The notes beneath the pieces were generated by a model. The model made no database searches, was not told the origin of the DNA, and worked only from the letters and a program-made list of their open reading frames with translations. DNA of 64,000 bases from Haliotis cracherodii. Taxonomy: Eukaryota. How positions within the stretch are numbered: position 1 is the first letter of the stretch; the number at the start of each line of letters is the position of its first letter. The stretch is from contig NW_027266308.1 in the NCBI RefSeq assembly GCF_022045235.1, forward strand, positions 57,722,001 to 57,786,000, written 5' to 3'. A program made the translations under genes and the position numbers. Shown one piece after another: positions 19,359 to 60,000 of the stretch.

Positions 19359-19689
19359 GAACGAACAATTTTCTGTTTTTCAGACAAATGTGTATAGATT
19401 TCCTCTCAGATTGTGACCGTCGCTGACATAAGTCAAAGGGAGGTAATAAAAATTACAAACCTTCTTATCTGCCCTGTAAAGTGCTAGTGCATATAACACT
19501 CGCTAGGGTGCGTCTGTTATATTTACGTGCCTATTTTATTTCTAACAGTGTAAAAGGTTTAAATTCCACCATAAAACTAACTTGATTACCAAAATATTCA
19601 TTAGTTGATGATCATAAACAAATAACGATGTCCCCACAAAGTATCAAATAAAACTGAACACGATCCCAGAATTCCACAGTCTTGAGAAA
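19359..19689. promoter_or_regulatory. Probable bidirectional promoter shared by FIBP and eIF4A3
   Basis: Divergent start codons only 331 bp apart; AAAATGGCG YY1-like motif at the eIF4A3 ATG. Confidence 0.7.
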
Positions 19690-25600: not shown

Positions 25601-28600
25601 AAACTTAAAATATCTTTGTAAAAGTCTTCTGAAGAGGCTACTGGCAGTCAAGTTTGGATAGCTTAGTTGACTGAAAATGTTTGATATAGGTTGTCAGGTC
25701 TATCTTCAGAAATAAGCTGCCCAGTTGCTGAAGACAATGAGGATACCATCCTACAGGAATTTCAACTGTCTGGAAATATATACGCTATTCTGAGTCCTTG
25801 TTTAATGCAATTCTGTTACACAATTTTTGTAATGGGGGCACGGTTGGCAGAGTTGCGTCCCTTGGGCACGCTAGAAACATGATTGTGGGTTTGAATCCCG
25901 GTTCGCCCTGATTATGTTTCTAGGTTTGTCAGCACCAAACCCGTGCTCAAGGGTTTTACTGAAGTGGTAAACATCTAAGACCTGCATCACGTTGGGCGTT
26001 CCTCCCACATTAAGTTGACACACCGCGATATAACTGGAATACTGTTGAAAGCAGTGTTAAACCCAACTCACTCACTCAATTTTGTACAACTTTAGCAGTG
26101 AAAACATGATTATTACACATTATATCTGTTTCCTACAATTACCATGAATCATTGGTCTTTTATGTGCTTAGAAAACAATAGGAACATGAAGTGTTCTTCT
26201 GAAGGGATGTACTGTATTTAACTTGTTTGTGTTTATAGGATTCAAAGAACAAATCTATGATGTGTATCGGTACCTGCCACCAGCAACCCAAGTACTTCTC
26301 ATCTCTGCTACACTTCCTCACGAGATCCTGGAGATGACCAGCAAGTTCATGACAGACCCAATCAGAATCCTGGTCAAACGGTAACATCTCAATCATTCTG
26401 ATCATTTTAGCTTCACATGTGCAATAGTATGGGGATTTGGGGATTGTAGACCAGATTACATCCCCAATATCTCAGACTCATGTATGGTCTGGAAAGGTAT
26501 TGGATGGCCGCGGTGACTGATTGGTCTGGATGGTGACCACCAGGGAAGACCAAATTGTTTTATATAATTATCCAGTCTGCATGGTTGCTGCTGTTGTCAT
26601 GTAGCTTTTAGTGGCATCATTCACCAGCTCACTTGCCATACTGATCAGTGAAGGTGAATGCTGACATATTGAATCCATTATGGACTAGCCGATGGCAGGT
26701 TCGCAGTGAGGAGACATTGCAGCAGGGAACTTTAAGTGTTTGCATATTAACTGCATTCTGAACCTAACAAACTTAAGGTGGCTTCAGACCCGGGAAGATC
26801 CGGGTAAAGAATCGGTCTTCAGCAACCCATGCTCGCCGTCAGAGGCAACTAACAGTATCGAGTGGTCAGACTGACTGACTTGGTTGAAGCATGTCATTGT
26901 ATCCCAATTGCATAGATTGATGCTCATGATGTCAATCACTGGATTGTCTTGTCCAAACTCGATTATTTGCAGACTGCTGTCATATAGCTGGAATATTTTG
27001 CTGAGTGCGGCATTAAACAAGAAACAAAATGAGGTGTCTTCACTTTACAAGATTAAATTTGCTGTTTTATGTTCACAGACACACATTTCTGTGTGATATC
27101 CCTTCCACATATTGTCATTTTTCCTTGCATGACAACAATCAAAAAATGAAGCTATAATGTCATTATGTTTTGATTATACTCTTTCTTCTCTTAGTTATGT
27201 CAGTGTGTATGAATTGTGTCCATGTTTCATACATGATGTTTGTATCTGAATCCAGTGATGAGTTGACCTTGGAAGGCATCAAGCAGTTCTTCGTGGCAGT
27301 AGAGAGAGAGGAGTGGAAGTTTGACACACTCTGTGATCTGTACGACACCCTCACCATCACACAGGCAGTCATCTTCTGTAACACCAAGAGAAAGGTACAA
27401 GACTCATTCCACGCAATAATCTTTCAGAATAGCGCCAATAACAGACCAATTAAGCATATTGATTCAAAGTTAAGGTCAATCACTTCATTCGACACAAACT
27501 TTTTATGTACTTTTCAGGTTATGCAATGTTGCAATTGTTTTTACACTTTAATGATGTCAATGACAGCCTACATGAACGCTTGATGGAATATACTGTTTTG
27601 ATGTTGCAGGTGGACTGGCTGACTGAGAAGATGAGGGAGGCCAACTTCACTGTGTCATCCATGCATGGTGACATGCCACAGAAAGAGAGAGATTCCATCA
27701 TGAAGGAGTTCAGATCAGGATCCAGGTAGGACTGTTGTTTCTGCATAGTCACATTATAGAAGTAATCATTGGTAGCATCAGTGTTGCCATGATACAAAGT
27801 AGCATACAGAAGGTTGAGGTTTGTTTTCAATATTGATGCCAGTTTTCGTTTTCGCATCATACGTTACAATGCTTCCGTATTTCATGCTTAGTCACTCCAT
27901 GAATCAGATTCATGAGTACCCATGAAGATCCGGGTTAGAATTAAGTCTCCGGCAACCCATCTGGTGGTGAAGCTGCTTGATGCATGTCATCTTATCCCAA
28001 TTGCATAGATCAATGCTCATGATGTCAGTCACTGGATTGTATGGTCAAGACTTGATTATTTAGAGACTGCTGCCATGTAGCTGGAATATTGCTGAGTATG
28101 ATATAATAATGGAAATTGTTTGCAAGAATGAGCCAAAGTTCGTAAGTGTTATTTTTTGTAATGGTAATGTTTGGGTTGCACTTTTGTTTTCAGAAGAACT
28201 CTTTTCTTAAATTCAGCAGAATGAGTTCATGTTGTTTTGTACATTTCAGTCGCGTCCTCATCACAACTGATGTTTGGGCCCGAGGTATTGATGTTCAACA
28301 GGTGTCTCTCGTCATCAACTATGATCTGCCAAACAACAGAGAATTGTACATTCACAGGTATGTAACTGTAGACTTTCAGTACCAGACACTCATAAGCAGT
28401 TTTATCTTTGTCAACTGCAACAAATCCAGCTGAGTATGCAATCTGGGCCAAGAACATGTCGACACATTCTTTCTAAGAACTTGACATGTTTTTCTCAGAA
28501 ACTTCACCACCTGTGAAGATTTGGGTTAGAATTGGTCTTCTGGAGTCCATGCTTGTGGTATTAGGCGTCGAACAGGATCATGTGGTCAGGCTCGCTGACT

Positions 28601-33616: not shown

Positions 33617-33886
33617 CTCCTTAGAACGATTATAGTTTGAATTTTGTTAAAACCAAAATGACGTCTTGAACATTAAAACATTTGAAAATGATTGGATTTT
33701 GTCATTATTTTGTTCTTGATTTTATCTCAAATGTATTTTGTGACTTATTTACGCGATTTTGCGAATCATTTAAATATTTGATATTCTATTTATATATTCT
33801 ATTAATAATGGAATAAGAAAACTATTTGTTGGAAAACATTGCTTCCACCACAGTTCATTGTTTTGCCATGTTTCAGTTGGACCAAA

Positions 33887-36800
33887 TATTATAGGCATAA
33901 AATAATAGATAAAAGAATAGTAATTAACAAGTCATTAAGACACTCATAGTAATTATATAAATAAACAAGCTGAGGGGCTAACAGAGTAAGAAATAGGTAT
34001 AACACATGGGAAGATATAGGAAGGGCAGGCGATATAGGAATTGAGGAGCACAGGAAACATACTGGGCCACTAGTAACCAGGGGTGACAGTAGTGGGTCGA
34101 GGGTCGGAGTACCAGAGCAAAACAATAAAAGTATCATAGCAAGGGAATGTGCAGGTTGCCAGAGACAAAATAGATTGGGAGAGGAAACGTAGAGGAAATT
34201 GCCCTCGGGTTCATAAATGGTTTTGGGGGGAATAGTCCAGATTCCGGGGGTTGAGGTGGTTACATTACCACAAGTCCTAAAAAGGACCTTGAGGTGAGAC
34301 AAGAGTGGGTTAGAATCATCTAGTGTAGTGGGGAAAGGTGGTTAACAATGATACATGGAAAAATGAGTAGAACTGTGACGTAGGTACCGATTTAAAAAGG
34401 GACAAAAGCCCCAGAGCGGGGAGAGAGGCGAGAGAGCGGCTGGGGAGACGACAACAGGACTGGTGCTCCTAGAGCGGCAGCCCAGAGCACTTTGGTCAAA
34501 CGAACAAGGTACCAATATCCGAACACAGGAACATTTTCTGTGTAACCCAACATATTCATATATGGATGTCTGCCGGGGAGCCCCTGCTGCGTGTGGCCCC
34601 TGGCCCCCCAAATGAAGGGGCCATTCAAGGGCTGGATCAAACATTGGAGGTACCACATGAAAGTAAGTGTAAATGAACTGTTACATATCACAGAGTACAG
34701 AATGGGCCACGCCAGACAAATCTTCCTCTGCAAAAGGCCTGCCAGACACCCCCAAAGAGGGTCCCAAAATATGGGCTGGGTTAAACATTGGAGGTACCAC
34801 ATGAAATCAACATAAAATGAACTATTTCACTCTACTAAGAATAAAAACCCCATTGCCAGACAAATCGTCTGCTGCATAAGGCCCGCCAGACACCCCCAAA
34901 TGTTGACCCTTAATGCACTCAGTGGACACTCTGGTAAAATTTGACCAGAGTATACATTCAAAGTACCAGATGAAAGTAAGTTTAGATCAACAGGTACATG
35001 TTACTGAGTACAAGACGGCCCATACCTGACAAATTGTCCTCTGCATAAGGTCCGCCAGACCCACCAGAGAGGGTCCCAAAATTTGGGCTGGGTTAAACAT
35101 TGGAGGTACCACACTGGGGGGTCGCGCCTTCAGATTATAACAATTGCAATACAAACCAGGGGGGTCCAAGAAACAGGTTCTCATGACCTGCAAGTATGAT
35201 CATGTTAATTCTAGTTCAAGTGGGAAATCACGCCATTAAGATAATTACAATGCCAAGACAAACCAGGGTGTGTCAAAGGAAGGTTTCTCACGACCTTCAT
35301 GTATGATCATGTTTATTCAGTTCAAAGTGTTTTATGATTTCATAAATGCTTCAAGTTATATTGTGATTATAACGTCAGTAGCACTATTATTAAGATTTCA
35401 TATTTGCAATCAGAGGTTGGCAGAAAAGAAAAGGCTAGGTGTGGTTTGGAAACGGCTTTTCTTTTAACAAAAGAATTCACATTTGTTTGATAACACAGCT
35501 CTATGGTAACAATGATAGGGAAATTTATACAAAATTCAGTCAATCGTGACAGATCAACAATTGCTTGTTTAGAATTTAGTGTTGTGGAAAACACCCTGAA
35601 TGGATCAGGTTAATGCAACCTTTCTTGGCATTTTACCGGGAGGTAAGAAAAGTTTTCCCGGGAAGCTTGATGTCGATTTCTCGAGAGAAGTGACGTGCTC
35701 GTCACACACCTCAGAAAAAAAAGAAGTTAAATTTATTGTGTATGGCTTTCCCTTCTTTATTGAGGGTATTCAAAAACAGATATATATATATATGTACACT
35801 AGGTCATCCTGGGATAGAAGTCTAAACACATTTAACCGTGGCACAGCTCACGCGCCAATATCATGACTCTCTGTATAGTGTAAGACGTTTATTCAAACAC
35901 ATAGATGGCAAATCTGAGACGTAAGGCCTTGTGAACATTTAGATATATAGTGGAGGTTTCATAACAGATATTTGAGTATTGAAATCAAAACCATGTCACA
36001 TTATGAACATACATTTACATTTAACAACAAGAACAAAATCATAAAACATGATGGGTAATTACATTTCACATTTGGTGGTGCGATAGTTTTGACGAGGTGA
36101 ATATCAGTAACGGCCCTTCTCCAACCGTGACACTCCGAGAAAAGTTTTGAAGATCAGGACGAAAATACATCAAGAATAGAACATTCATCTTTTCGTGTCA
36201 CCAAACCCTGTTCATCTCTTTCCGTGACCTGACAAACTTGATATTTTCACACAGGTCTGTGCCACGATTTTGTTAGGTTTCTCGATACGATAAACTTTTC
36301 GGGACCGACCATAAATATTGAAATATTTGGCCGGAATTCAGCTTTTTAGATGATAAAACTTGCTAAATAAACGGAGATCATAGGTTTTTAAACACAATTA
36401 TCACCAAAAGATTTCCAAATGGTATTAGGGACTGTCATTTACCATTCTTATAGCAGGCTTTGAGGACTACCTAAGCATGTTTGGGTTTGTAGGAATCCAT
36501 AGCCAAGCTATCAGGCTATAGCAGGCTTTGAGGACTTCATAGCTGATCAGATATATATTCACAAGAATCAGATTCATGCCTTTTTTTATTACATTTCAAC
36601 GATAGGCCTAATCTATGATATCAATACTAGTATTCAGAGACCTGATTTTATAAATACGTGATTTTAATCTCAATAAAATCCTTCCATCTTTAAGAACAAA
36701 ACATAAATTTGACCATCTGTTGACTCTCAGAGCTGATGTCCAATGTTTCATTATGCACACTGGGATTACAGAGGGTCAACTGTGTGGGGTGGGGTGAGGG

Positions 36801-38202
36801 TCTGTCTAGCGGGCCTTATGCAGAAGAGGATTTGTTTGGCAATGGGTATTTTGTAATAAGTAGAGTGTAATAGTTCATTTTATGTTGGTTCCATGTGATA
36901 CCTCCAATGTTTAAGCCTTATGCAGAGGAAGATTTATCTGGTGTGGCCCATTCTGTACGCTGTGATATGAACCTGTTCATTCAAACGTACCTTAATGTGG
37001 TACAATCGATATATATTCCAGACCAATTTTACCCGTGTATACCTGAAGGGTCAACTTTTTGTGGGTGTCTGGCGGGCCTTATGCAGAAGATGATTTGTCT
37101 GGCAATTGGTATTGTGCAATAAGTAGAGTGCATTTTATGTTGGTTTCATGTGGTACCTCCAATGTTTAACCCAGCCCAAATTTTGGGACCCTCTCTGGGG
37201 GGTCTGGCGGACCTTATGCAGAGGACAATTTGTCAGGTATGGGCCGTCTTGTACTCAGTAACATGTACCTGTTGATCTAAACTTACTTTCATCTGGTACT
37301 TTGAATGTATACTCTGGTCAAATTTTACCAGAGTGTCCACTGAGTGCATTAAGGGTCAACATTTGGGGTTGTCTGGCGGGCCTTATGCAGCAGACGATTT
37401 GTCTGGCAATGGGGTTTTTATTCTTAGTAGAGTGAAATAGTTCATTTTATGTTGATTTCATGTGGTACCTCCAATGTTTAACCCAGCCCAAATTTTGGGA
37501 CCCTCTTTGGGGGTGTCTGGCAGGCCTTTTGCAGAGGAAGATTTGTCTGGCGTGGCCCATTCTGTACTCTGTGATATGTAACTGTTCATTTACACTTACT
37601 TTCATGTGGTACCTCCAATGTTTGATCCAGCCCTTGAATGGCCCCTTCATTTGGGGGGCCAGGGGCCACACGCAGCAGGGGCTCCCCGGCAGACATCCAT
37701 ATATGAATATGTTGGGTTGCACAGTAAATGTTCCTGTGTTCGGATATTGGTACCTTGTTCGTTTGACCAAAGTGCTCTGGGCTGCCGGTCTATCCGCTCT
37801 CGGCCAAAAAGCCTCGAGATCGGGAGAGCGGCTGGGGAGACGACATATGGACTGGTACTCCGTTCTCGGCTTGTTGTCACGATCTTTCGAACCAGCATTT
37901 CGACCGAGACAGAAGCTTTGCGGCCGAAGTCTCGTATTTAAGTGACAAGTAGAGTTGGTTGACCGGCAACACAAAATGGGAATAAAAGCTGTTAAACAAA
38001 GATCACTCTTTGTGCTTGTTGGAGGAACTATGGTAATAGGTCCAAGGCCCTCGGGTACTGACATTGTACCTCTCGCTCATCCCTGACTGTCAGCACCAAG
38101 AACGAGGGGATTACCGTAGTTAGGTCGTAGATGTACACGAATTGCCACCCTGGTAATTAACAACAATTACCGTCCCTTATCATCTTAAAAATACCTTGGA
38201 TA
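33887..38202 (+). repeat. 5' LTR, split into 33887..34469 and 37793..38202 by a DNA-transposon insertion
   Basis: The two halves concatenate to match 47848..48848, with roughly 6 substitutions and one 11-bp indel by eye. Confidence 0.92.
34470..37792. mobile_element. Non-autonomous long-TIR DNA transposon (Academ-like)
   Basis: 644-bp TIRs (34470..35113 and 37149..37792) built of ~155-bp subrepeats; TAG...CTA termini; 3-bp TSD TCC confirmed by the uninterrupted 3' LTR; no transposase ORF. Superfamily inferred from termini and TSD only. Confidence 0.8.
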
Positions 38203-38204
38203 CG

Positions 38205-38224
38205 TGGTGGACTGATGCGGGGTA
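38205..38224 (+). promoter_or_regulatory. Primer-binding site, tRNA-Ala-like
   Basis: TGGTGGACTGATGCGGGGTA starts 2 nt after the LTR; resembles the complement of the tRNA-Ala 3' end (TGGTGGAGATGCGGGG) with a 2-nt insertion. Confidence 0.7.
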
Positions 38225-38268
38225 CGATCTTCCCTGACGACTGCCAAAAAGCATTGTCAGGTGACGGC

Positions 38269-38485
38269 GTGCAGTGGTTGCACAAGCGAGGTAACGTTGC
38301 GCAGCGGTTGCGCAAGTAAAGTGGAACTGTGCGGCGGTCGCACAAGTGAAGTGACGTGGTGCAGCGGTTGCACGAGAACTTCCACTGTGGGGAACTCAAC
38401 AGTCGTTGGGAGGAACAGTGCAGACGTTTGCACATCCGGAAAGGTGCAGACGTTTGCACATCCGGAACGGTGCAGATGGTTGCAC
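38269..38485 (+). repeat. Seven short hairpin repeats in the retroelement leader (4 x 30 bp, 3 x 26 bp)
   Basis: GTGCA-N5/6-TGCAC palindromes at 38269, 38299, 38329, 38359, 38418, 38444 and 38470. Confidence 0.8.
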
Positions 38486-40411
38486 ATCCACGGACCACTC
38501 CGGGCTTACAATGGAGGGGCTTTCGGAGAGACGAGCGGATGGTTACACCTGGACCCAGTGGTGGAGTGACGTACCAGGAAGTGATGGACAGAACTAACAA
38601 TTATGACATTTTAACATTTTGTGTGGTGCCAAGTTTCATTGGATCGGGCCTGGTTAGGTAAGCAATATTTTGATGCATTGTGTTACATATTGTAAAAGAA
38701 CGAGATCCTTGAACATAATCATGCCACTAACACAAGACTCAAACAATAACGGTACAACTGTCGATCAACAGTGTCGGCGTGGGTCGGCTTTATTTTCTAT
38801 GCCACTCACAAGTTGTAGGGTCGTATGGCAAGCCGTTTTAGGGTCGTTCCATCTGACCTAGTGAGCCGAGCACTAGCGCTCCGGTAGCATACCAGTCTCA
38901 TGGTGCCAGTACGCTCGGCTTGTCGAGTTAATTGAGAAATAATTGCTCCTAACAACCATGAAGAAAACATTTCCCAATGAAATTCCCCGCACTCAATCAT
39001 TGCGCTAAAAAGCGCCAATGACCTTATGGACATAAAACAACCAATGTTGAGCCATTTACTTACTTCTTACAAGTGGTATAGTGGCTATAATTGGTCGAAA
39101 CAAGGATGATTTTATCAGGGATCTTGTTCTTGGAAATGCATCTCAGAATGTAAAAATATTTGTGATTACTAGACGATATTCTACACTTGCTAAAGTTATT
39201 TAGAACACAGCTTATGCTGCCGGGTCCCCTCAGTTTGAGTCAAAAGTAATCATGCAATACACTTACCGAGTGAACAGGTGGACTAGCCCACTAATTCGCG
39301 ACAATCTTCACTCCAACCAGTAAATGTTGTTAATATGAGCACGGACTTGTATAACTTGTTATATAGGTCCGTGATATGAGCCAGTACCTTTGTGCCCAAA
39401 CACCACAAGACACACACACCTACCTAGAGCCCTAGAGACACATACACAGTCAACATTTTACTGTCCTCAGAATAACAGTCATAATCCAGGGAAAACCACA
39501 ATGGCAGTGGTGGCCGTTTCACCCAACAGGGAAATTTTACAAATAGAGCAGAAAGTGTCCACCATCCCCCGGTCGACAATACACGTGTGGAGGAGGTGGT
39601 ATACAACACTCAAATGCAGGGTTTCGCAAGTTACTCACAGCACACTTTGTGACACAAGCCTAAAGGTTCAGGTTCGATGAGGCAGACTAGTAATTTAGTA
39701 GCATTATGGTATTTACATGTCAGAAAAACCAAGATAAAAATATTCTTATATAGTTCGTTTTAATTGAACTTCTCCCCGTTGCATAAATATCACCAGAAGA
39801 CCAGAGCATCAATAGTAGGTAGCACTGGGCGGAAACATGATGTCCAAAGGACCTGCAGGGGTATGAACACCGTTGTAGGTCTATTAAGATAATTCTTATT
39901 ATGTCAAATATTGAATTCAGTTTATTAGTTCTACTTCATGAAAAAAACAAAAACAACAAAAAAAGACCCCCCAAAAGACCTGAAAACAAACAAACAAAAC
40001 CTACTTGATTCGTTAATTAAAAACATTTGTTTATTTTTTTCATCAATGTCTACTGTGGTACCTCTGATATTTTCGTACAAAATTGACTTGATAAACGTTT
40101 GTAATAAAAGAGTTATATATTGTAATATGTGATTCCGCGTTGAAAAGCATTAAAAAGGCCAATGAACGAAAATCCAAATGGTTCAGCTACAAGTGGACCA
40201 ATATCTTTTTAATCTGCAGAACATAGATAAGATAATATTTATTGCAGAAACATTGCATTATGGGACTGATGCAATTTTGTAAAGATGAAACATTATGATT
40301 CATATATACATATATACAGACATACAGAATTTACATCCCGGTAGTCACAAAAAAAAATCAATATTACATATTTGATGATATTATTATACATAAAATGGCA
40401 ACGGTTGGATA

Positions 40412-40540
40412 GTTCGTCACGCTGAAGACCGTGTTCGATTCCCGACATGGGTATAATGTGTGAAGCCGATTTCTGGTGTCCCCGCCGTGATATTGCTGGA
40501 ATATTGATAAAAGCGGCGTAAAACTAAACTCACTCACTCA
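40412..40540 (+). mobile_element. SINE family A (5'-truncated) inside the LTR element
   Basis: GTTCGATTCCCGACATGGG...GCTGGAATATT...(ACTC)n. Confidence 0.8.
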
Positions 40541-41053
40541 CGCACACAACGGTTGATTAGAATGAAGGGGTATTTATTGTTTAAAATAATAGACATGGAA
40601 ACAAATGCAATTGATATTGATGGCTTCATTATTTGACAGGATGTATTGGAATAATCTGTTTTCATGGCTGTGAACATGTACATTTACATTTTGTGTGAAT
40701 AATTGCCCAAAGAGTATATTTCTTTCGTGAGCATTTTGGGTACAGTGAAATAGGTAGATCTTTCAATCATCAATGGTTAAACATGTAAAGCATAGCCTCT
40801 GATGTAGTGGGGTTGGTGGCTTTGTATGTCTTACAAGTTCAATATTTAATTTATGGTTCCTAATCTTATTTTAGAAATATAAATGTTTCGAAAGTTGTAA
40901 AAATAACATCAATATCAATACGTCAGACCTTTTACCTCTCCACTGCTTTTCAATAGATCACAAAAACCTGGCCCTTCCCCAATAGTAGACCGCCCAAAGG
41001 AGAAACCATGGCATGTGCTCAGGAATTCTTCTCTACCCCCTCCCCCCCCCCCA

Positions 41054-41108
<55 letters not shown>

Positions 41109-41526
41109 GATCTCTCTCTGGATCTTTCTCTCGATAAGCAACCCAACATAGATGTATCCGGTTATCAGGTTATAAATGACCACAGTGGTGCTGTTACCCC
41201 CTATTCATTAACAGTGCGCACCTTGCAAGCTTGGCACATTTGGCACCTCCGGTGGCCTGGCACTGGCCTCAGTGTCAGCTATCGACATGGATGCTAGGTC
41301 AAATAACCCCAAACACCCTGTCCCCACTGGTGATATGTCACCAACCTATGTGTCAATTATGGTAGCATTTGAAGGATCTCATGGTGGGTAGGATTTCAGG
41401 AGAGAATAGTACACCAACAAAAACTACCGAAATTCAAGCATAGCGATAGCGTCTGACCACGCCTCAAAACCAAAGGGGTGTTCACATAAAGATGTACATA
41501 TATTGATCCATTTGAATGAAGTGAAT

Positions 41527-42223
41527 ATGCCGACGAGATGGTTCTTGTCGAGGAGATAATGCCGACGAGATGGTTCTTGTCGAGGAGATAATGCTGACGA
41601 GATGGTTTCTTGTCGAGGATATAATGCCGACGAGATGGTTTCTTGTCGAGGATATAATGCCGACGAGATGGTTACTTGTCGAGGATATAATGCCGACGAG
41701 ATGGTTTCTTGTCGAGGATATAATGCCGACGAGATGGTTTCTTGTCGAGGATGTAATGCCGGCGAGATGGTTTCTTGTCGAGGATATAATACCGACGAGA
41801 TGGTTTCTTGTCGAGGATATAATGCCGACGAGATGGTTTCTTGTCGAGGATATAATGCCCACGGGATGGGTTCTTGTCGAGGATATAATGCCGACGGGAT
41901 GGGTTCTTGTCGAGGATATAATGCCGACGAGATGGTTTCTTGTCGAGGATATAATGCCGACGAGATGGTTTCTTGTCGAGGATATAATGCCGACGAGATG
42001 GTTTCTTGTCGAGGATATAATGCCGACGAGATGGTTTCTTGTCGAGGATATAATGCCGACGAGATGGTTTCTTGTCAAGGATATAATGACGACGAGATGG
42101 TTTCTTGTCAAGGATATAATGCCGACGGGATGGGTTCTTGTCAAGGATATAATGCCGACGAGATGGTTTCTTGTCAAGGATATACTGCCGACGGGATGGG
42201 TTCTTGTCAAGGAAGTGATGCCA
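41527..42223 (+). repeat. 33-bp tandem array (~21 units), each unit a stem-loop
   Basis: Unit AATGCCGACGAGATGGTTTCTTGTCGAGGATAT; stem CGACGAGA/TCTTGTCG. Confidence 0.95.
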
Positions 42224-42610
42224 ATAGGGTGATAATTAGTCATGTGAAGGGACAAACATGATTCAGTTATGTAGCGTATCATGGGATAGATAACAGGGGT
42301 GCCAGGATCAAGAACATGTTGCCTACCACCAGTGCGCAATGGGGGTGGGTGACATGTGAGAAACTGACATCAAGTAATAGGGGGTGCCTGCTACCATGGG
42401 ATTTAGCAAAGCATTTCAGCCACTGCACCGACACAATCACGCACAGGATACACGGACAGGATACACGGACAATGCACTGATAGGAACTTCACCTCACACA
42501 TAATAACTTGACATCTAGTACTGGAAAAAAAAATGTATATAATGAAGTTATTGCATCAATAGGACCCCAGATACTATCACTAAGGACATCTTTATCTGTT
42601 CCCAGGCGAG

Positions 42611-45142
42611 ATGTTGCTCTGGCTGTTGACGACCACCGCCCTAAGCCTGATTTGGAGTATACAAGGGACAATTAGTCTGGAGAATGATCTCCAGAGATTA
42701 CATTTTGGGGTTCTGTTTAAAAATTTGGGGAGACTTAAAACATACGACCAAACTTGGGTACACACATTTGCACTGACACTGCCGAAAACACTTCCTACAG
42801 ATCTCACATTCAAATTCCCGCGATGTGTCGCTGCATTTAAGGGTACCCCTGCCAGATGCTTACAGACAAAGGACGTAACGGAACCACTTTTGAATTACAC
42901 TCGGGACATACACCACGCCGCAACCCAACACATACAGGATACCCTTGACACCATCAAACACTTCATACCAGAAAGTACAGAACCTCAAAGCCAATCGCGC
43001 CAACAACGCAGCTTATTACCATTTTTGGGTACCATAGCTAAGGGCCTCGCGGGGGTCGCCACAGAAAGGGATTTAAAGATCATTGCGGATCATGTTAGAC
43101 TGCTAGCAAATGAAGTTCACCTACGCGACATAGCCTTTAACCTCACGGGGCACACCATGGCATCATATATGACTAAAACTAACTCCCGCCTGGATAACCT
43201 AGTAAGAATTGTAACGCTTAATCACAACCAAATAGTCCTAGCATCACAACGTAGCCTCCGGGAGAACGACTGGTACAAACAATTATTTGCCACCTTACTC
43301 ACATTAACCACACAACAGTTGCACCTTACCAATGAACTGAACGCACACGCACGGGACCTCCTGACCAGTACATCAAAACTCCTACAAGGCCAACTACCAC
43401 AAGAATTGATTCCATTATCTACGCTCAGAGTGGTAACAAATAGAATTCGACTCCAGTTAGCCTTACATTATTCCGACTTTGACCTCGTGCATAAGGACCC
43501 GCGTCAATATTACACCCAGGCACATGTGAAAGTCATCCGGAAAGGGGATATTCTTTTCCTGTCCCTATTAGTACCCATCACCCCATTCAAGGAAGCCACT
43601 ACCCTTTATCAGACCACAGCTATCCCAGTTCCATTACATGAAGACTCGAACGATACTACCATAGTCAAAAACCTTGCAAGATTCATCGCGGTGTCACAGA
43701 GGGATAAACGGTTTGTAGAGTTTACGAGGGAGGAGTACGACTCATGTATAGACACAACGACCACACAATGTAGTAGTCTACCAGCGGAAAGGAGCTTCGT
43801 AAATCCCACATGTACGCTTGCACTCATCCAGAATGATATCGATTTGGTACATGAATTGTGCAACTTCCACTTGGTACCCGATGGAGCGGAGTCACAACTA
43901 TACGAATTAGGTACAGGACAATTACTTCTCATTAAAATACCCAAATTAATCTACACATGCGCGAACGTAACAAAAATCCAGCAGGGATGTAATTATTGCC
44001 TGGCGCCTATCTACTGTTACTGCTCTATCCAAGCAGTAGGGAAGATGCTTCCCCCACGCCTTACTGGTTGCAGACAACCAGAAGACACATCCTTTGTAAA
44101 TTACACGTTAAACGTAGCCCTGCTCCGGCATTACTTTTCGACACAAGACATCCTGAAGAGATTACCGTCCTTAGTCGCAAAAGAACCAGTTGCTTACAAA
44201 ACGGCACCATTTCGATTGTCAAACGCTTCATTTACTAATCTGATGAAAACAGACACAAAAATCAGTATTAACTTAAAACATGCCGTCGCCAAAGCCAAGG
44301 CCAACGAAATTATATACACTAACCCGGCCGATCCTTTGTACCTGGATGCACTGACGAGTACTGAAGGGAACACCGATTGGTTCGGGGTAGTAGTCTATTC
44401 CACTTACGTAATGTGGGCTTGTATTGCTGTGCTATTCGTCTCGGTAGTTCTTACGAAACGTCGCATAGCGGCAATACAGGCACAACTAACTTTAAGAGCG
44501 GCGTTGGCCACGGCGGCGGGAATATCCATACCTCAGAATCCTTTGGTATGGACGCAACCTGCTACCGCCACCACAACAACCGACACGCCTGGTTTGTCGG
44601 CAGCGGCCATATTCAAACCCCTTTGGAATCTGGAAATGATGGTATTACTGTTGGTTATAATATTGTTCATAACACTGGCAATTTATTTCTACCGGGTCCA
44701 AACCAACCCCACCACGACGCTCTACCTAAGTTTCTCGACTCCACATGACAACCTTAGACTCAACCTCCTCAAGGTTGACGCCCCGCCGATGGTACTGTCC
44801 CTTTCTCAGTCACAATATATCCCGGAAAACATTCAGATTACACATCACTGGCTCACTTCCAAGATATACATCAAATGGCCCATGAGTAATGTGTCCCTGT
44901 GTAACACGCTTACAGATACCCAAATTGCCCTCCCTGTAGCACTAACTGTCCCTCGACATGTGGCTGGACGGCTGTATAAGGTCCTCCAGGGCAGATATTT
45001 ATTGTTTATGTACCTAGTACAATTTAGAACGACTTATCCTGTTTCGGCCGGACCCTCAAATTCCCATGCCAGTCAAACCCCAACAGCAAGTCAATACAAG
45101 GACAGATCGGGGGGCGGACTATATCCAGCGCTAAATGGTTAA
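42611..45142 (+). CDS. env: Envelope glycoprotein, class I fusion type (baculovirus F/errantivirus Env-like), 843 aa, intact
   Basis: N-terminal signal peptide; furin site RQQR (aa 130-133) followed by fusion peptide SLLPFLGTIAKGLAGVAT; heptad region; Cys-rich domain; several N-X-S/T sites; TM at aa ~590-614 and a second TM at ~676-694; lies between the LTRs. Confidence 0.88.
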   Translation: MLLWLLTTTALSLIWSIQGTISLENDLQRLHFGVLFKNLGRLKTYDQTWVHTFALTLPKTLPTDLTFKFPRCVAAFKGTPARCLQTKDVTEPLLNYTRDIHHAATQHIQDTLDTIKHFIPESTEPQSQSRQQRSLLPFLGTIAKGLAGVATERDLKIIADHVRLLANEVHLRDIAFNLTGHTMASYMTKTNSRLDNLVRIVTLNHNQIVLASQRSLRENDWYKQLFATLLTLTTQQLHLTNELNAHARDLLTSTSKLLQGQLPQELIPLSTLRVVTNRIRLQLALHYSDFDLVHKDPRQYYTQAHVKVIRKGDILFLSLLVPITPFKEATTLYQTTAIPVPLHEDSNDTTIVKNLARFIAVSQRDKRFVEFTREEYDSCIDTTTTQCSSLPAERSFVNPTCTLALIQNDIDLVHELCNFHLVPDGAESQLYELGTGQLLLIKIPKLIYTCANVTKIQQGCNYCLAPIYCYCSIQAVGKMLPPRLTGCRQPEDTSFVNYTLNVALLRHYFSTQDILKRLPSLVAKEPVAYKTAPFRLSNASFTNLMKTDTKISINLKHAVAKAKANEIIYTNPADPLYLDALTSTEGNTDWFGVVVYSTYVMWACIAVLFVSVVLTKRRIAAIQAQLTLRAALATAAGISIPQNPLVWTQPATATTTTDTPGLSAAAIFKPLWNLEMMVLLLVIILFITLAIYFYRVQTNPTTTLYLSFSTPHDNLRLNLLKVDAPPMVLSLSQSQYIPENIQITHHWLTSKIYIKWPMSNVSLCNTLTDTQIALPVALTVPRHVAGRLYKVLQGRYLLFMYLVQFRTTYPVSAGPSNSHASQTPTASQYKDRSGGGLYPALNG

Positions 45143-45948
45143 CATTTATACAATGAACACCTCCAAAGCAACCTTACAGGATAAGATTTGCTAGACAAAT
45201 AATACAAGTACTCAACAACAAATAAAATACAAAATAAAATTAAAACACGCAAGACTCCGAACAAAACAAAACTGTCCTTGTTATCAAAACAAACAAAACA
45301 ACAATAACAAAACAAACCCTACATTGGGCTCCTGCATATTCTACATCCACTTTAACACCCTAAAAGTTGTCCTTCGCACACACGTGGGCTATCAAGGTGA
45401 ATCAACACCGGACACAGTGGGTTACTTGGGTACATATACGTAAATACAAAAACAAAACAAAAAACAAAAACAAAAACAAAACAATGTTGGTTGGTACACT
45501 CATCTACGTCTGTACGTATCAGTTTGACAGGGGTGTTATCCCTGGAACTTCACATTCATACGATCCGTACGATAATTGGCAATATCTATATGTGCAGATA
45601 AAGCGTTGGTTGGTACTACCATCTACGTCGGTACGTATCAAGTTCGACGGGAGTCTCATCTACGCCGGTACGTATCAAGTTCGACAGGGGTATTACCCCT
45701 GGAACTTCGAGTCCTTACCCCTGGAACTTCGAGTCCTTGCAATCCGCACAATCATTCGAATCACCATACCCATATATAAAGGATTGACCGTTACTCGTAT
45801 CGCAGTCGTATGTGTTCAGTTCAACAGAGGTGTTACGCCTGGAACTACATTCGGCGACTACCGATCGTTACTTTAAGTGCAATTATATACATGATATTGT
45901 TAGTGTGCAATTATTAACATACATATTGGTTTGAAACCCTGTAACGTG

Positions 45949-47322
45949 ATGGATACGCAGACGGTTGAACATGTTGTGACTTCTTTTGATAACGAATTCG
46001 GCAAAACGACCGCCCCTGTTGTCATTCCGGAAAAATTATGGCGAAAATTGTGTCGGCTCTCCCTATTCTTTAAATGTCTTTCTGGCTACATATTTAATAT
46101 GGGAGAACATTGGGGCAAAACCCATTTAGCAGACGGAAGGTTCAAAACTTACAAACGTCGTCAGTTCACATTGAACCCTCCAATACTTTTTACGCCCAGC
46201 CCCCCTGATTTGGCCGACCGTATAGGAAGGGCCCTCTATCTAGCAGCAAACCCAGGACCACTGACCGATGTCCCCGAATCGTTAGGTATAGGAGCGGCCG
46301 TACTTTTAATGTACGGTTTATAATATGACTTACGAATGTTGATAGTATTAGGTGTTCAGACGGCAATCGGAGAATTGGACATGGCTATCCTTTTCCAATT
46401 ACAACAATTACAGACGGACATGGGTGCCGACCTACAGAGTTATACAGAAATATTCTGGCAGTTAGCGGATATTCCTAGATCAGTCATCGGACGTACTCTG
46501 TCCAAACCAATAACGCCAGAAGTACTAGGAAGCTTATCAATGGGAAGGGACCATCTCACTTGTAGGCGATCGCAATTGGCGTTACGGCATGTCTTGACGC
46601 GATGCGCCCTTTGTTATAAAGACACATTTCCGATGAATGATCAGGGAACAAATTTTCCAACGGTAACTTTTTGCAAATGGTGTCGCCGGATACAACACGT
46701 GGAATGTGCAGCCGCCCTGCTAAAACAGTCTGGCTTATCCTACCGCATAGTGACACTTAACGCAGGGACACCAAATGCCCGCCAGTATATAGAACTCGAC
46801 TTCCCTACAAGCCACTATTCGGAAGCATTCGACGTGCAGCCAGGGTTCCTGGAAGGTCGTGTTTCTCCACCTTTAGACCTCAGATTCAATTTAGATCAGT
46901 GTTCAGTCTGTAGGGTACCTTTTGGCTGTGATTTCATGGAGGTGCCGAGTGACATTCCACCTATATTGTACAAAAATCCGGCCTTCACACCGCCCAAACA
47001 TCCCCTTGATAGATTCGACGTAAGGACCTTCATGAATTATTTCAGATCGTCAACAGAACGAATACCACCGGGGAAACCGGTACGAATATATTTAAGCCTG
47101 TCGTCCCCTCCAATAGAATTTCCAAAAACATTGATGGACGAGACCAGACGCCTTATAGGTCCGCTCAATCGTAGGCTCGTAGAAACGAGGGCGCTACAAA
47201 TTAGACTGTTCTACCCTCCTCAAAGTTCAGACTTTTGGGACGAATATTGTTGGAACAAGGGGGTGTCAGTTACGCAGTTAGCAGACGGGTTGAATCTACA
47301 CAATGACCCCAACGAAACATAA
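45949..47322 (+). pseudogene. Retroelement accessory gene (~457 codons) with one in-frame TAA at 46321; C4HC3 PHD/RING-variant finger, possible N-terminal BTB-like domain
   Basis: Track ORFs 45931..46323 and 46336..47322 share a frame and are separated only by TAA TAT GAC TTA CGA; motif CALC-x19-CKWC-x4-HVEC-...-CSVCRVPF. Confidence 0.65.
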
Positions 47323-47786
47323 CATAGTTGTGCGGCAATAAGAATCGTCTCACAGAGAGGTCACACTTAATCAATGCGTCACCACCATCAATAGTTTATG
47401 TCTCTTAACTCTATAGTGTATAAATGTCGTTCTTAAGTAACATATTCCTTGTGTCCATCTGTGTACCCTGTGTGATTTATTGGTATTAAGGTTGTACCCA
47501 TGCATATAGTCAAGGATTATTACTCCTATTGCACCTAAATCAGTGCAAACTAGTACAAATATATGCAAATAGGTGTCTCATTGTTATTAGAACTATGCCA
47601 ATCTTTGTATATTAGACGTATATATCTATCGAAATTGTATTCACGTGTGTGTGTTGTTTGTTTTTTTTGCAATTATGTGTGTATTTTCTGTAATTGTTCA
47701 AGGTCAACCAGCACTATGGTCACACCCATTTATTTAAAACAGTACGTAACAAAAAAACAAAAAACATCCCAAACTGAACCAACCCA

Positions 47787-47847
47787 GATCCCCACGGCAC
47801 TCTACCTTAAGAGTGTGAGGACACACTCTTCGTCAGACCGGGGATCG
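47787..47847 (+). promoter_or_regulatory. Pre-LTR hairpin and short purine tract (plus-strand priming region)
   Basis: AAGAGTGTG-AGGA-CACACTCTT 9-bp hairpin (47809-47830), then GGGGAT-CG abutting the LTR; GATCCCC (~47788) can pair with GGGGATC. Confidence 0.55.
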
Positions 47848-48848
47848 TATTATAGGCATAAAATAATAGATAAAAGAATAGTAATTAACAAGTCATTAAG
47901 ACACTCATAGTAATTATATAAATAAACAAGATGAGGGGCTAACAGAGTAAGAAATAGGTATAACACATGGGAAGATATAGGAAGGGCAGGCGATATAGGA
48001 ATTGAGGAGCACAGGAAACATACTGGGCCACTAGTAACCAGGGGTGACAGTAGTGGGTCGAGGGTCGGAGTACCAGAGCAAAACAATAAAAGTATCATAG
48101 CAAGGGAATGTGCAGGTTGCCAGAGACAAAATAGATTGGGAGAGGAAACGTAGAGGAAATTGCCCTCGGGTTCATAAATGGTTTTGGGGGGAATAGTCCA
48201 GATTCCGGGGGTTGAGGTGGTTACATTACCACAAGTCCTAAAAAGGACCTTGAGGTGAGACAATAGTGGGTTAGAATCATCTAGTGTAGGGGGGAAAGGT
48301 GGTTAACAATGATACATGGAAAAATGAGTAGAACTGTGACGTAGGTACCGATTTAAAAAGGGACAAAAGCCCCAGAGCGGGGAGAGAGGCTAGAGAGCGG
48401 CTAGAGAGCGGCTGGGGAGACGACAACAGGACTGGTGCTCCGCTCTCGGCCAAAAAGCTTCGAGATCGGGAGAGCGGCTGGGGAGACGACATATGGACTG
48501 GTACTCCGTTCTCGGCTTGTTGTCACGATCTTTCGAACCAGCATTTCGACCGAGACTGAAGCTTTGCGGCCGAAGTCTCGTATTTAAGTGACAAGTAGAG
48601 TTGGTTGACCGGCAACACAAAATGGGAATAAAAGCTGTTAAACAAAGATCACTCTTTGTGCTTGTTGGAGGAACTATGGTAATAGGTCCAAGGCCCTCGG
48701 GTACTGACATTGTACCTCTCGCTCATCCCTGACTGTCAGCACCAAGAACGAGGGGATTACCGTAGTTAGGTCGTAGATGTACACGAATTGCCACCCTGGT
48801 AATTAACAACAATTACCGTCCCTTATCATCTTAAAAATACCTTGGATA
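47848..48848 (+). repeat. 3' LTR (1001 bp)
   Basis: TATTATAGG...CCTTGGATA; TATA-like ATTTAAAAAG at ~48351 and AATAAA at ~48627. Confidence 0.93.
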
Positions 48849-50216
48849 CAAATGGCCTACAAGAAGATTGAATTCATTCAGGATGCGTGCAAATAAGATA
48901 CATTCTATATGTAGCTAAGAGAAGAAACAAAAAGAACCCTCCTCTGATGTCCTCATATGTCTTCTGTATGAATGTGGTTCCTATGCTGTGAGTGAGTGAT
49001 TGATTGTGGTTTTACGCCGCTTTCAGCTATAACAGTGGGCTTCACACATTGTACGCTATGTGAGGAATCGAAGCCGGGTCTTCTGCGTGACGAGCGAACG
49101 TTTTTACGAATCTGCTACACTACCGCCCCAATCGTATACTGTGACGAGAGGAAATGAGAACTCAGCACGCCCAAAGCTATAATCGGTTGTTCGTATTTAC
49201 ATTTCATGCTTGTTGAAGGGATAACATTTACTTGAAAATCTACAGTCACTGTACTTGTGAAAGGGCAGCCATTTTGAACGAAAGACGGAACGTTCGTAAC
49301 ACGTTGGTGATAACGAGGTCTGTTGTGATTCGAGTGAATGTCAGTCAAGGGCGAGGAACAGAGTCAGTTTTGTAGGGGTATGACATTCTGGGGGAGGGGT
49401 AAGGGCTATACCGAAAAAAACCCGGTTCACTGGACATACTTGGTGCGTTCTAAAAAAATATAAAAAAAGTATTGTTTCAGAGAAAGACTATCGTTCAACA
49501 TGTCTGTGTTTGCCAGTGTAAAAAGTCCCCGATACTTATTGTTTACCCTACTGAGAGTAACCTTGTACTGAAGTTTCATTCAACAGCTACGTCCGTGTAT
49601 AGTTGATGTCACGCTCCCTGTGGAATTGTTGATTTAAGAATTGACCTTCACTTTGTGTGAGTTCATTGGGGTATGAACCTTCATAGAATGAGGGCCAAAC
49701 TGTATGAACGTCGGAGCTTGCAAAAATTGTGTCGTTCAAACACTTATAATTAAATTTTCTTTGGGTTCATTGAGATTCCTGCATTCTAATTAGATGAATT
49801 GGTCACGTGTTTTCGCATTTTATTCTTTATTTCACAATGAATGTAAAAAATTAAGCCACGCCCACCGAAGCGGACTACTTTTAGTACTACTGAATGTCGG
49901 GGAATCCAATATTACAGTCGAGGGATTTCACTCTCTGTTCACGTGTATCGTCATGCACAGGCCATTTAGCGAAATTCATGCACATTCATTGTCCATACAA
50001 CCCTTTGGGACCGAAGATTGAGAAGGAATGAAACAGCAAACGTGCAGGCTCGCTCGACTGTTTTTTTCCACAAGATTCATGTCTTTGGGTTTCATTACAT
50101 TTTCTAACAAGCATTTTTCCAACTGTGTCTTCCCGTTCTGAGGAAACTGTTCGAATCTGACGGCATCTGGCCATGTTTTTATAATGCAACGGCTAGCCAT
50201 GAGTCCTGACCTTTCC

Positions 50217-53344: not shown

Positions 53345-56300
53345 CTAGTATTTCTCGGGAATTTCTACGGAACGCGAAGGGGTTGACTGTTGAGTGGGTG
53401 GTCGACAAGGCAGACAGGGCATTCGGCCAGTCCTCCACAGCACGAGCAATCCCCCAATCAGCTGGACCAACCACACGGTGACTGCAGTCCATGTTCCTGC
53501 CTGGGTCATTAGAAAGACATGCAACAGTATTGAGTTCATCATCACTAGATTGACTAAATCAATTGACCAATACACAAACGTTTAACCTAAACGTTTCAGC
53601 TACATTTTAAATGGCCAACCACATTAATTTGTAGTCGTATACATAATATGTTTATTTCAAAGAATCGACCCCCCGATAATGATGATCAAACGGACAAGTA
53701 AAAGCCGTTGGACACTGTGCCAGTTGATTACATATTCGTATCGGTACTGATTGTATTTCACATATAGTAAATGTATTTGTGCATGTCTTCCGAGCATCTT
53801 ACTTAAAACAACTCTTCCAGAAGGCTAGCGAGTTGAAAGTATTGTTTACACAAACAAGAATAAACTTGAATGGTTTTCTCATATGATCCGTAATGGAATA
53901 TTCATTCATTGACTAAACGATTTTCAAACAGCATGCCATCTAGCTATACATTACTGACAAGGTGCCCATTCCATTAGACGCCATATACAGGTATATATAT
54001 GCCCATTCCATCAGACGCCATATTCAGCTATATATATGCCCATTCCATTGGACGCCATATACAGCTATATATATGCCCATTCCATTAGACGCCATATACA
54101 GCTATATATAAGCCCATTCCATTAGACGCCATAAACAGCTATATATATGCCCATTCCATCATACGCCATATACAGCTATATATATGCCCATTCCATTAGA
54201 CGCCATATACAGCTATATATATGCCCATTCCATTAGACGCCATATACAGCTATATATATGCCCATTCCATTAGACGCCATATACAGCTATATATATGCCC
54301 ATTCCTTTAGACGCTATACACAGCTATATATATCCATTAGACGCTGGGTATATAGGTATATATGTACCTGCTGCAAGCTCCTAAGACAGGCCCGACCGAG
54401 TCTTAATGTTTTTCGTAAACCTGAGATAATTTAGCGTGGAGAATAGACAGCCAAGATGGATGACGTGGCCCAAGAGCCTCTACGGGAAAGTATGTCCTGA
54501 GTGAACGACAGTTTTGTATAAGAAAAAGGTCTAAAAAGTATACACGAGCAAAGCCATAATTATCATAATTATTAAGTTAACGTAACTTCAAAACGTCACG
54601 TGATTTTATATGGTATTCTCATCAACACAGAAGTATGACATCATGTTGTATTCCGGGGCACGGGTGGCCCAGTCATCTGAGGCGCCGCGATTCGCTGTGC
54701 AGAGTTGCGTCCCTTGGGCACGCCAGAAACCTATGATTTCTAGGTTTGTGAGCACCATACCCGTGCTAGTAGGTTTCACCGAAGTGGTAAACGTCTAAGA
54801 CCTGCATCACTTCGGGCTTTCCTCCCACATTAAGTGAGTGAGTAAGTATGGTTTTACGCCGCTTTTAGCAATATTCCAGCAATATCACGGCGGGGGACAC
54901 CAGAAATGGGCTTCACACATTGTACTCATGTCGGGATTCGAACCCGGGTCTTCGGCCTGATGAGCGAACGGTTTAACCGCTTGGCTACCCGACCGCCCCC
55001 ACATAAGCTGACACGCCGTGATATAGCTGAAATAATGTTAAAAGCGGCGTTAAACCCAACGCACTCACACTCACTCATGTTGTATTCGAAAAAATACAGC
55101 AATAAGACGTCATTTTGCATTCTCATTGATACAGCAGTTTGACACCGTATTGTATTGTTCTCATTGATACAGCAGAAAGATGTCCTATTGTATTGTTCTC
55201 ATTAATACAGCAGAAAGATGTCCTATTGTATTGTTCTCATTAATACAGCAGAAAGATGGCATATTGTTTCAGGTGATAAATCATCTTTCAGCAGAAATTC
55301 AAAAGCACATGCGCAAATAGAGGAGTTCTTACACTCGACCTTCTTTTACCGTTATTGGTTGCATATAGAGGAACATATACTTCATTTGAATGTGTGTCAT
55401 GTTCTGTCCTAAAACATGTTTATCAGATTAACGTCGCATCGCCAATGTTATAAACCTAAGAAATGCTCATGATGTCAATCACTGGATTGTATGGTTCAGA
55501 CTAGATTATTTACAGACCGCCGTCATATATAGCTGGAATATTGCCGAATGCGGCGTTAAACAAACAATCTTGTACTGGAGTGTGCTGAAGTGCTCCCCGA
55601 ACGATGAGGTAACATGGATAATCAACCCCCTTGAAGACTTACCTCTGCTGCCGATAGATTCTGATAGAAGAAGTCTTTACCCGAATGTTCATTGATTACC
55701 GCCGCAGATGAGCACCTATGGAAGCGTGGGTGAGTGAGTGAGTGATGTTGTACTCCGCATTGAAAGGTATTTCACTATGAAACATGAGGGCTTAATATGA
55801 CACATGTGGTGGAGTGTTTTACCACTTACCAGAGCGAAATCCACATGTATGGATGTGGTGCCGACCAAACTTCCTAATCAGTGGGAATCTGGGATTCGAA
55901 CCCAAGTTAAGCGGATCCTATGACTATGTGTAAAAGGAAACCAACGTGGATGTTAATTAATGCATGACAAAGGAACGCTGTATCTCAATTTCAATAGTTT
56001 ATTCAAAACGTATTTGCGTTATTGTAACTACTATTCGATTTTTTTACTTTTGACAATTTAATCCTTGACTAATTTCCACGTTGATTGCGTCACTAAATAA
56101 AGATCAGCCTTATAAAACCGTCTTCAGGTTATATCCGTGGGTATAAAAGACATAGTATTTCGAATATCTATGTAGTTTCTGCATGTAAAATAATCAATAA
56201 ATAACTGTGAAAATAATCATAGTTGCAGTCTGTTTGATACGTGGTTTTCCTGTGGTGAAATATTTGATACGGGTATCATAGTTTTCATGTTTTCAGCCAA

Positions 56301-58899: not shown

Positions 58900-59862
58900 T
58901 TGCAAGGAGAAGCTGTCATAGCTGTAATCTCGCAGTCAGGTCCATCTGGTAACATATTGTGATGTTGCAAGGAGCAGTCCATAGCTGTAATTTCGCAGTC
59001 AGGTCCATCTAGTAACATATTGTGATGTTGCAAGGAGCAGTCCATAGCTGTAATTTCGCAGTCAGGTCCATCTAGTAACACACTGTGATGTTGCAAGGAG
59101 CAGTTCATAGCTGTAATTTCGCAGTCACGCCCATCTGGTAACATATTGTCATATTGCAAGGAGATGTTCATAGCTGTAATTTCGCAGTCAGGTCCATCTA
59201 GTAACATATTGTGATGTTGCAAGGAGCAGTTCATAGCTGTAATTTCGCAGTCAGGTCCATCTGGTAACATATTGTCATATTGCAAGGAGAAGTTCATAGC
59301 TGTAATCTCGCAGTCAGGTCCATCTAGTAACATATTGTGATGTTGCAAGGAGCAGTTCATAGCTGTAATTTCGCAATCACGCCCATCTAGTAACATAACG
59401 TGATATTGCAAGAAGTTCATAGCTGTAATTTCGCAATCACGCCCATGTAGTAACATATTGTGATATTGCAAGGAGAAGTTCATAGCTGTAATTTCGCAGT
59501 CAGGTCCATCTAGTAACATATTGTGATGTTGCAAGGAGCAGTTCATAGCTGTAATTTCGCAGTCACGCCCATCTAGTAACATATTGTGATGTTGCAAGGA
59601 GTAGTTCATAGCTGTAATTTCGCAATCACGCCCATGTAGTAACATATCGTGATATTGCAAGAAGTTCATAGCTGTAACTTCGCAGTCAGGTCCATCTAGT
59701 AACATATTGTCATATTGCAAGGAGAAGTTCATAGCTGTAATTTCGCAGTCAGGTCCATCTAGTAACATATCGTGATGTTGCAAGGAGCAGTTCATAGCTG
59801 TAATTTCGCAGTCACGCCCATCTAGTAACATATCGTGATATTGCAAGAAGTTCATAGCTGTA
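58900..59862. repeat. 63/60-bp tandem array (~15 units) upstream of the TMEM179-like ATG
   Basis: TTCATAGCTGTAATTTCGCAGTCAGGTCCATCTAGTAACATATTGTGATGTTGCAAGGAGCAG units. Confidence 0.92.
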
Positions 59863-60000
59863 AATGTATCTTTTGGATTTAAATCTACTTTGCGTTTTAT
59901 CTGTACGATTTTGCAGCAAACGGACTGTAGGCCGGGGGTAAACAAAACGGACTAATGATCATGGGAAATTGTTTGTCAAAATTAACTTGGCTTTATTCTG

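Follow-up and report, generated by a model that had tools for sequence, protein, structure and literature searches.

Metazoan Ty3/gypsy errantiviruses with an F-type envelope gene (env) have been surveyed by Chary and Hayashi, and molluscs are among their hosts (PMC13524379). The survey required intact gag, pol and env and marked two Haliotis assemblies as 'No intact copies'; in its main text the replication of env-carrying retrotransposons outside insects is stated as open, and the words 'non-autonomous' and 'accessory' are absent (PMC13524379). Here we analyse a long terminal repeat (LTR) retroelement of the abalone Haliotis cracherodii, located in a stretch of 64,000 nucleotides (the window; contig NW_027266308.1, positions 57,722,001 to 57,786,000, assembly GCF_022045235.1). 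A first-pass annotation had taken it for an element that kept env without gag and pol and might supply Env to a gag-pol partner, like a split genome. We conclude instead, with a probability of roughly 0.8, that it is a chimera, present as one copy, of two parents: a non-autonomous family with decayed gag and no env, and its gag-pol-env relative of the errantivirus type within Ty3/gypsy, with two template switches as the likely route. It would be a snapshot of recombination rather than half of a split virus.

The gag-pol-env parent (the helper) is like the surveyed errantiviruses in having gag, a pol ordered as protease, reverse transcriptase (RT), RNase H, then integrase, and an F-type env, whereas the window copy is without pol and has an extra open reading frame (ORF) after env (PMC13524379). 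In the koala recKoRV/PhER elements (PMC6112702) and types C and D of ERVK[2-1-LTR] in cattle (PMC10924933), a coding endogenous retrovirus combined with a non-coding element, probably after co-packaging, and the products have a foreign non-coding centre, target duplications and trans-complementation, all of which our element appears to share; MusD/ETn is named as a comparable pair (PMC10924933). Like recKoRV, it is a mosaic of coding and non-coding sequence whose breakpoints fall where both parents are alike and which has a target duplication, but it has not spread to many loci, being found at one locus in the assembly. Only the 3' end of env is retained in recKoRV1 (PMC6112702), the bovine D-type elements have no intact ORFs (PMC10924933), and both systems are multi-copy vertebrate retroviruses (PMC6112702, PMC10924933), whereas our element has the backbone of the non-autonomous partner, a whole open env and a mollusc host. 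Drosophila rover offers another parallel, as it involves double recombination by RT switching between env-plus and env-minus variants within one errantivirus lineage; both of its parents are coding, while one of ours is a long-decayed non-autonomous family (PMC12992720). Large retrotransposon derivatives (LARDs) are similar in their large non-coding interior with coding remnants, their LTRs and primer-binding site (PBS), and their tandem and chimeric forms, but they are mainly known from plants and 'env' is not in the main text of the report (PMC13570524). The process behind recKoRV, the bovine types C and D and rover is the same as that behind the window element. In the open literature, screened by title and the start of the abstract, no env-retaining non-autonomous element of an invertebrate was found. 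The window element differs from these precedents in that its non-autonomous backbone carries the complete env as an open frame, and in its mollusc Ty3/gypsy host.

Mosaic structure of the element

When compared with the helper-type element C20, the region from 42200 to 47999 shows 96-100% identity in all 29 bins of 200 bp, and from 48000 the identity is 87% and below. The left crossover is found in a 33-bp tandem array: the sequence before the array and its units 1-2 are of the non-autonomous type, while the later units and the downstream sequence are of the C20 type. The right crossover is within the LTR. Between LTR bases 13 and 159, every one of the 32 informative columns is helper-type (a single indel accounts for about 12). 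Starting at base 170, 159 columns are of the non-autonomous type, 6 of the helper type and 22 of neither. The same switch occurs in the 5' LTR, where a single site among the first 300 bases sets it apart from the 3' LTR. What the first-pass annotation regarded as a kept env is a block acquired from a gag-pol-env relative through these two crossovers.

During the reverse transcription of LTR elements, a mixed U3 region gets to both ends only via a round of reverse transcription. Since the mixed U3 is present at both ends and the target duplication is intact, the chimera itself integrated; the switch in both LTRs together with the duplication also makes an assembly error unlikely. The earlier claims that the element is non-autonomous, has retained its cis signals and must have been moved in trans are supported, as is the view that more than a simple deletion following insertion is involved. 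In favour of a full-length provirus whose gag-pol was lost later, through deletion or ectopic conversion, young copies of other env families here do show simple internal deletions; at C78 53.4 Mb, the sequence on either side of such a gap is 99% identical to a full-length copy. For the window element, such a history is highly improbable: the two ends, 14 kb from each other, have the same LTR crossover, which a single post-insertion event does not give, and the interior is another family's sequence instead of a shortened C20. The chimera in both LTRs refutes it unless a later LTR-to-LTR conversion is invoked.

In a search for the LTR junction, the window's two LTRs matched at 100%, and the other 19 of the 21 matches lay at 84-93% (best 40 of 56 candidates). 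No second copy of the chimera was found among the best-scored candidates, so that it occupies one locus in the assembly; the further copies with env but without gag and pol that had been envisaged did not appear. Six of the 21 listed sequencing runs contain at least half of the query words, a measure which cannot tell the chimera from the helper; no RNA run was listed as containing the sequence.

The interior, the parental families and a possible route

RT, RNase H, integrase and protease were not detectable in 38204-42610, but a decayed gag is present (tblastn against the C20 Gag, E 1.2e-27, 67.8 bits compared with at most 30 bits in 20 shuffles; blastn, 65% over 419 bp). The claim that 38225-42610 is empty of gag and pol therefore holds for the pol enzymes and not for gag. 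Decayed pol in 38200-42600 had been named as the observation that would count against the first interpretation; no pol enzyme was detected, yet the decayed gag comes close to it. The interior had also been described as hairpin arrays and AT-rich sequence only, while it includes captured dispersed repeats and the tandem array in addition to the gag remnant.

At aligned sites, the interior is 89-94% identical to the non-autonomous family in all 12 places examined. Against C20, only 373 of 3,323 bases align, at 79%. The interior is another family's sequence and not a shortened helper. The non-autonomous relatives have the same leader, the same gag remnant and mostly also the 33-bp array. No remnants of env or of the accessory gene were found 3' of the array in 11 stretches of about 10 kb each from this family, several copies being incomplete, and a search for a pol-tail remnant before the array gave one weak match in a single relative, on which we make no claim. 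The interior family has no functional gag-pol, keeps its cis signals and is multi-copy, as in LARDs; the absence of coding capacity, also characteristic of LARDs, applies to the env-less relatives but not to the window copy with its open env. One LTR pair of the family, from a copy possibly part of a tandem, differs at only 2 of 992 sites, from which we conclude that the family moved recently. At C33:343001-368000, three env-less units stand head-to-tail with LTR pieces between them.

The C20 element, 16 kb long, follows the Ty3/gypsy order of gag, protease, RT, RNase H, integrase, env and accessory ORF, with a 4-bp target duplication and LTRs that differ at 1 of 917 sites. Judging from the LTR differences of both families, both parents moved recently. 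The window copy has LTRs, a tRNA PBS and a short target duplication as errantiviruses do, and an F-type or gB-type env after pol was scored as present; the pol order protease-RT-RNase H-integrase is found in C20 and not in the window copy, which for this reason is regarded as a derivative and not as a full errantivirus member. C20 is itself damaged: RT is frameshifted, and an in-frame stop separates it from protease. Another in-frame stop, between gag and protease, is probably read through, because several other families here share this layout. In several env families (loci L036, L039, L046-L049 and L052), a single stop is all that separates gag from pol within a shared frame, which suggests stop readthrough.

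In the RT search, for which all 21 candidates were scored, only C20 comes close; the broken copies at C18, in a C6 cluster and at three C67 sites lie at 77-81%. Env sequences of at least 90% identity are found at four places only, namely the window, C20, C18 and one C6 cluster (best candidates scored). A true split genome, in which env-only and env-less gag-pol components depend on each other, might be sought in the three older C67 copies (about 80%), which are without most of env and keep gag, protease and RT pieces; integrase, however, is gone from them as well. No env-less gag-pol partner with intact enzymes exists among the 21 candidates, and C20, C18 and C6 combine pol with env. The expected partner with the same LTR and PBS and gag-pol but no env was not found. 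With a single locus and a family that is env-less elsewhere, the split genome is hardly credible and, in this assembly, largely refuted.

We account for the chimera by the following route. Helper Gag and Pol would have packaged both RNAs in one particle, and minus-strand synthesis would have started on the non-autonomous RNA. A switch to the helper RNA near LTR base 165, in U3, would then have allowed the accessory gene and env to be copied, before a return switch inside the shared 33-bp array brought synthesis back to the non-autonomous RNA. Plus-strand transfer would have placed the mixed U3 at both ends. Since its insertion, the copy has acquired an in-frame stop in its accessory gene, and a DNA transposon of 3.3 kb has landed in the 5' LTR.

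Several points weigh against this account. Gene conversion at the DNA level followed by one retrotransposition would yield the same picture. No unbroken helper of the C20 family was found in the assembly, so the helper is inferred. The genome searches scored the best candidates only (40 of 165, 40 of 49 and 40 of 56), and they cover a single assembly, while other individuals could hold more copies. The env changes on the window's side (5 non-synonymous, 3 synonymous) are too few to exclude selection. The borders of U3, R and U5 are based solely on one TATA-like and one AATAAA motif.

Env, the accessory gene and the sister family

The env is open across 843 codons, as had been claimed. It has a predicted signal helix, an RQQR site followed by a hydrophobic peptide, a nearly invariant R133 and two hydrophobic helices at about 590-622 and 664-698. 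A Pfam search with the window env, the accessory pieces and the short interior frames gave nothing significant; Baculo_F was passed by 6 of the 20 env homologues tested, not by the window protein itself. It has 1,571 relatives at E 0.001, and a profile of 92 sequences matches solved 'fusion protein' entries (E 3e-19). The structure model (predicted local distance difference test, pLDDT, 79.5) finds the F proteins of paramyxoviruses and pneumoviruses as the best PDB folds, with E 7e-9 and low TM-scores, and matches baculovirus F and related glycoproteins in BFVD. On these grounds, it is a predicted F-type class I fusogen of the metazoan-errantivirus kind. The second-best BFVD match is an uncharacterised 801-aa abalone herpesvirus protein (E 2e-24, 862 columns, 13% identity), which comes from a virus of the same host and is like the window env in length and layout.

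Compared with C20, the env differs at 24 of 2,529 bases (0.95%), 11 synonymous and 13 non-synonymous. A frame of 843 codons would stay open after 8-12 random substitutions with a chance of 0.71-0.59. Given so few differences and this survival probability, the env is open owing to its youth and no selection on the window lineage is needed. Constraint at the family level is clear (dN/dS 0.19 against C18), but it belongs to the helper lineage.

The accessory gene had been reported without a defect; the window copy has an in-frame stop, while the C20 copy is open. At 90%, the database offers only uncharacterised Haliotis proteins as relatives. They are about equally distant from the window copy (19 of 457 residues) and from the C20 copy (22 of 457), and so are uninformative on further chimeras. 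In the ESM Atlas, the best score for the protein was 0.86 (RING-like), a lead only.

Upstream pol was looked for at 20 further loci whose env frames are long and open, and several were young, partly deleted copies. In one of them, C43:181311-189363, the LTRs are 99.4% identical, the duplication reads CAAT, env is open over 796 codons and only scraps of gag-pol are left. This copy belongs to a sister family with LTRs of 796 bp (TG...CA). The shrunken interior of the C43 type was found at 13 loci examined, 9 of which hold env (Table 1) with differing flanks, and the env is open only in C43. When compared with full-length copies, the pol scraps are at 72-75%, and env and LTR at about 97% (dS 0.029). 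The env sequences of six defective copies do not form one clade against those of six full-length-type copies (approximately unbiased test, AU p 1e-5; three short env copies were excluded). Variants shared only by defective copies number 29 non-synonymous to 25 synonymous, where the neutral expectation is 3.46 to 1; private variants number 300 to 94. It follows that a lineage with dead gag and pol but carrying env spread in the sister family, and that it repeatedly swapped env with the helper. Because of this exchange, the env constraint cannot be assigned to the satellite. The sister family thus fits the general idea of the first-pass annotation better than the window does, without demonstrating Env supply.

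Three further copies of the sister family (C34:24.13 Mb, C26:0.36 Mb and C2:44.89 Mb) have the same 1.7-kb pol deletion, and since two of them have different target duplications, the deleted form moved in trans. Two very young elements, at C67:42.16 Mb and C78:53.40 Mb (LTRs 100% and 99.95%), have most of gag-pol deleted and an open env. The C67:42.16 Mb element has a 476-codon ORF after env which shares a Cys/His motif with the window accessory protein (E 1e-6).

The window element might also be the founder of a spreading env-bearing non-autonomous subfamily, moved in trans and adding Env to helper particles. The chimera completed reverse transcription and integration, its open env belongs to a family in which env is conserved, the LTR-LTR distance of 0.6% and the env-C20 distance allow more than one round, and in the sister family the env carriers with decayed gag and pol reached many loci. 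We nevertheless consider it quite unlikely: the element is a single copy, helper-type copies have their own env, 8 of the 9 sister env copies are broken, env of the defective copies does not form one clade, and the only open copy has 11 private non-synonymous changes against 2 synonymous ones. A wider and speculative proposal is that mollusc errantiviruses have persistent satellites, long decayed in gag-pol and repeatedly reloaded with a working env by recombination, whose Env would be added to the mobilising particles; the window would show the birth of such a satellite and the sister family (C43, C12, C80, C7 and others) its mature state. We hold this to be unlikely.

Architecture of the locus and its meaning

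Table 1. Features of the window and env-carrying loci of the sister subfamily. Positions refer to the window unless a contig is named.
Feature	Position	Strand	Remarks
LTR retroelement	33887-48848		CAAA on both flanks
Target duplication CAAA (4 bp), left copy	33883-33886	+	
Target duplication CAAA (4 bp), right copy	48849-48852		
5' LTR, part one	33887-34469	+	TAT...ATA termini; helper-type to LTR base 159, non-autonomous-type from 170
Non-coding terminal inverted repeat (TIR) DNA transposon in 5' LTR	34470-37792	.	3,323 bp
5' LTR, part two	37793-38202	+	2 substitutions vs 3' LTR
PBS, tRNA-Ala(AGC)	38205-38229	+	2-base bulge and 1-base gap
Leader	38261-38489	+	30-bp and 26-bp palindromic repeats; also in both parent families
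gag remnant, decayed	38941-39612	+	Stops and frameshifts
Non-coding filler, non-autonomous-family type	39661-41526	+	Dispersed-repeat pieces, CT microsatellite
Short interspersed element (SINE)-like repeat inside filler	40414-40547		
33-bp tandem array	41527-42213	+	Common to both parents; crossover 1 after about unit 2
env	42611-45142	+	843 aa; predicted F-type class I fusogen
Accessory ORF	45949-47322	+	457 codons; in-frame stop 46321-46323; Cys/His zinc-finger-like motif
Pre-LTR hairpin	47809-47830	+	9-bp stem, 4-base loop; non-autonomous family has one too
3' LTR, chimeric	47848-48848	+	Crossover 2 between LTR bases 159 and 170 (window 48006-48017)
Sister subfamily, env-carrying loci	C43:181311-189363, C12:33.03 Mb, C80:42.44 Mb, C7:6.56 Mb, C34:2.15 Mb		
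Sister subfamily, env-carrying loci, continued	C25:3.08 Mb, C13:9.09 Mb, C56:65.24 Mb, C4:22.39 Mb		
Exon-like host frame, presumably F-box-like	5182-5592	+	Named by eye
Exon-like host frame, presumably DEAD-box helicase-like	27158-27583	+	Named by eye
Related exon-like frames	14839-26471	-	Host-gene stretch 5182-31500
Unrelated tandem array, 43/66 bp	12427-13836		
Unrelated tandem array, 37 bp	53963-54333		
Unrelated tandem array, 63 bp	58900-59863		

The target duplication, the near-identical LTRs (6 substitutions and one 11-bp indel), the PBS and the hairpin before the 3' LTR had all been recognised from the sequence and were confirmed. The PBS is complementary to the 3' end of tRNA-Ala(AGC) genes from the same genome. 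The leader palindromes are likely a packaging or dimerisation signal. The 5' LTR, taken earlier for a single 1-kb block, is in two pieces around the TIR transposon. The transposon ends in TAG...CTA, its 644-bp inverted arms are 99% identical to each other, and the duplication at its flanks is 3 bp (TCC). Its family has dozens of genome copies at 94-98% (best 40 of 242 candidates scored), and two other insertions also show 3-bp duplications; the longest frame is 119 aa. The family is young, abundant and non-autonomous, with internally repeated arms. We tentatively label the ends Academ-like. The transposon entered the 5' LTR after the integration of the element. With a TATA-like motif at LTR base 504 on one side and an AATAAA at 780 on the other, it is probably in R, where further reverse transcription would likely be blocked.

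An open env without gag-pol need not imply selection or a split genome, and surveys that demand intact gag-pol-env overlook such elements. For the question whether satellites contribute Env, the sister subfamily offers suitable material. The double crossover, resolved to the base and copied into both LTRs, is genomic evidence of likely RNA particle sharing in a mollusc, and through it an env was regained, opposite to the usual direction of loss.

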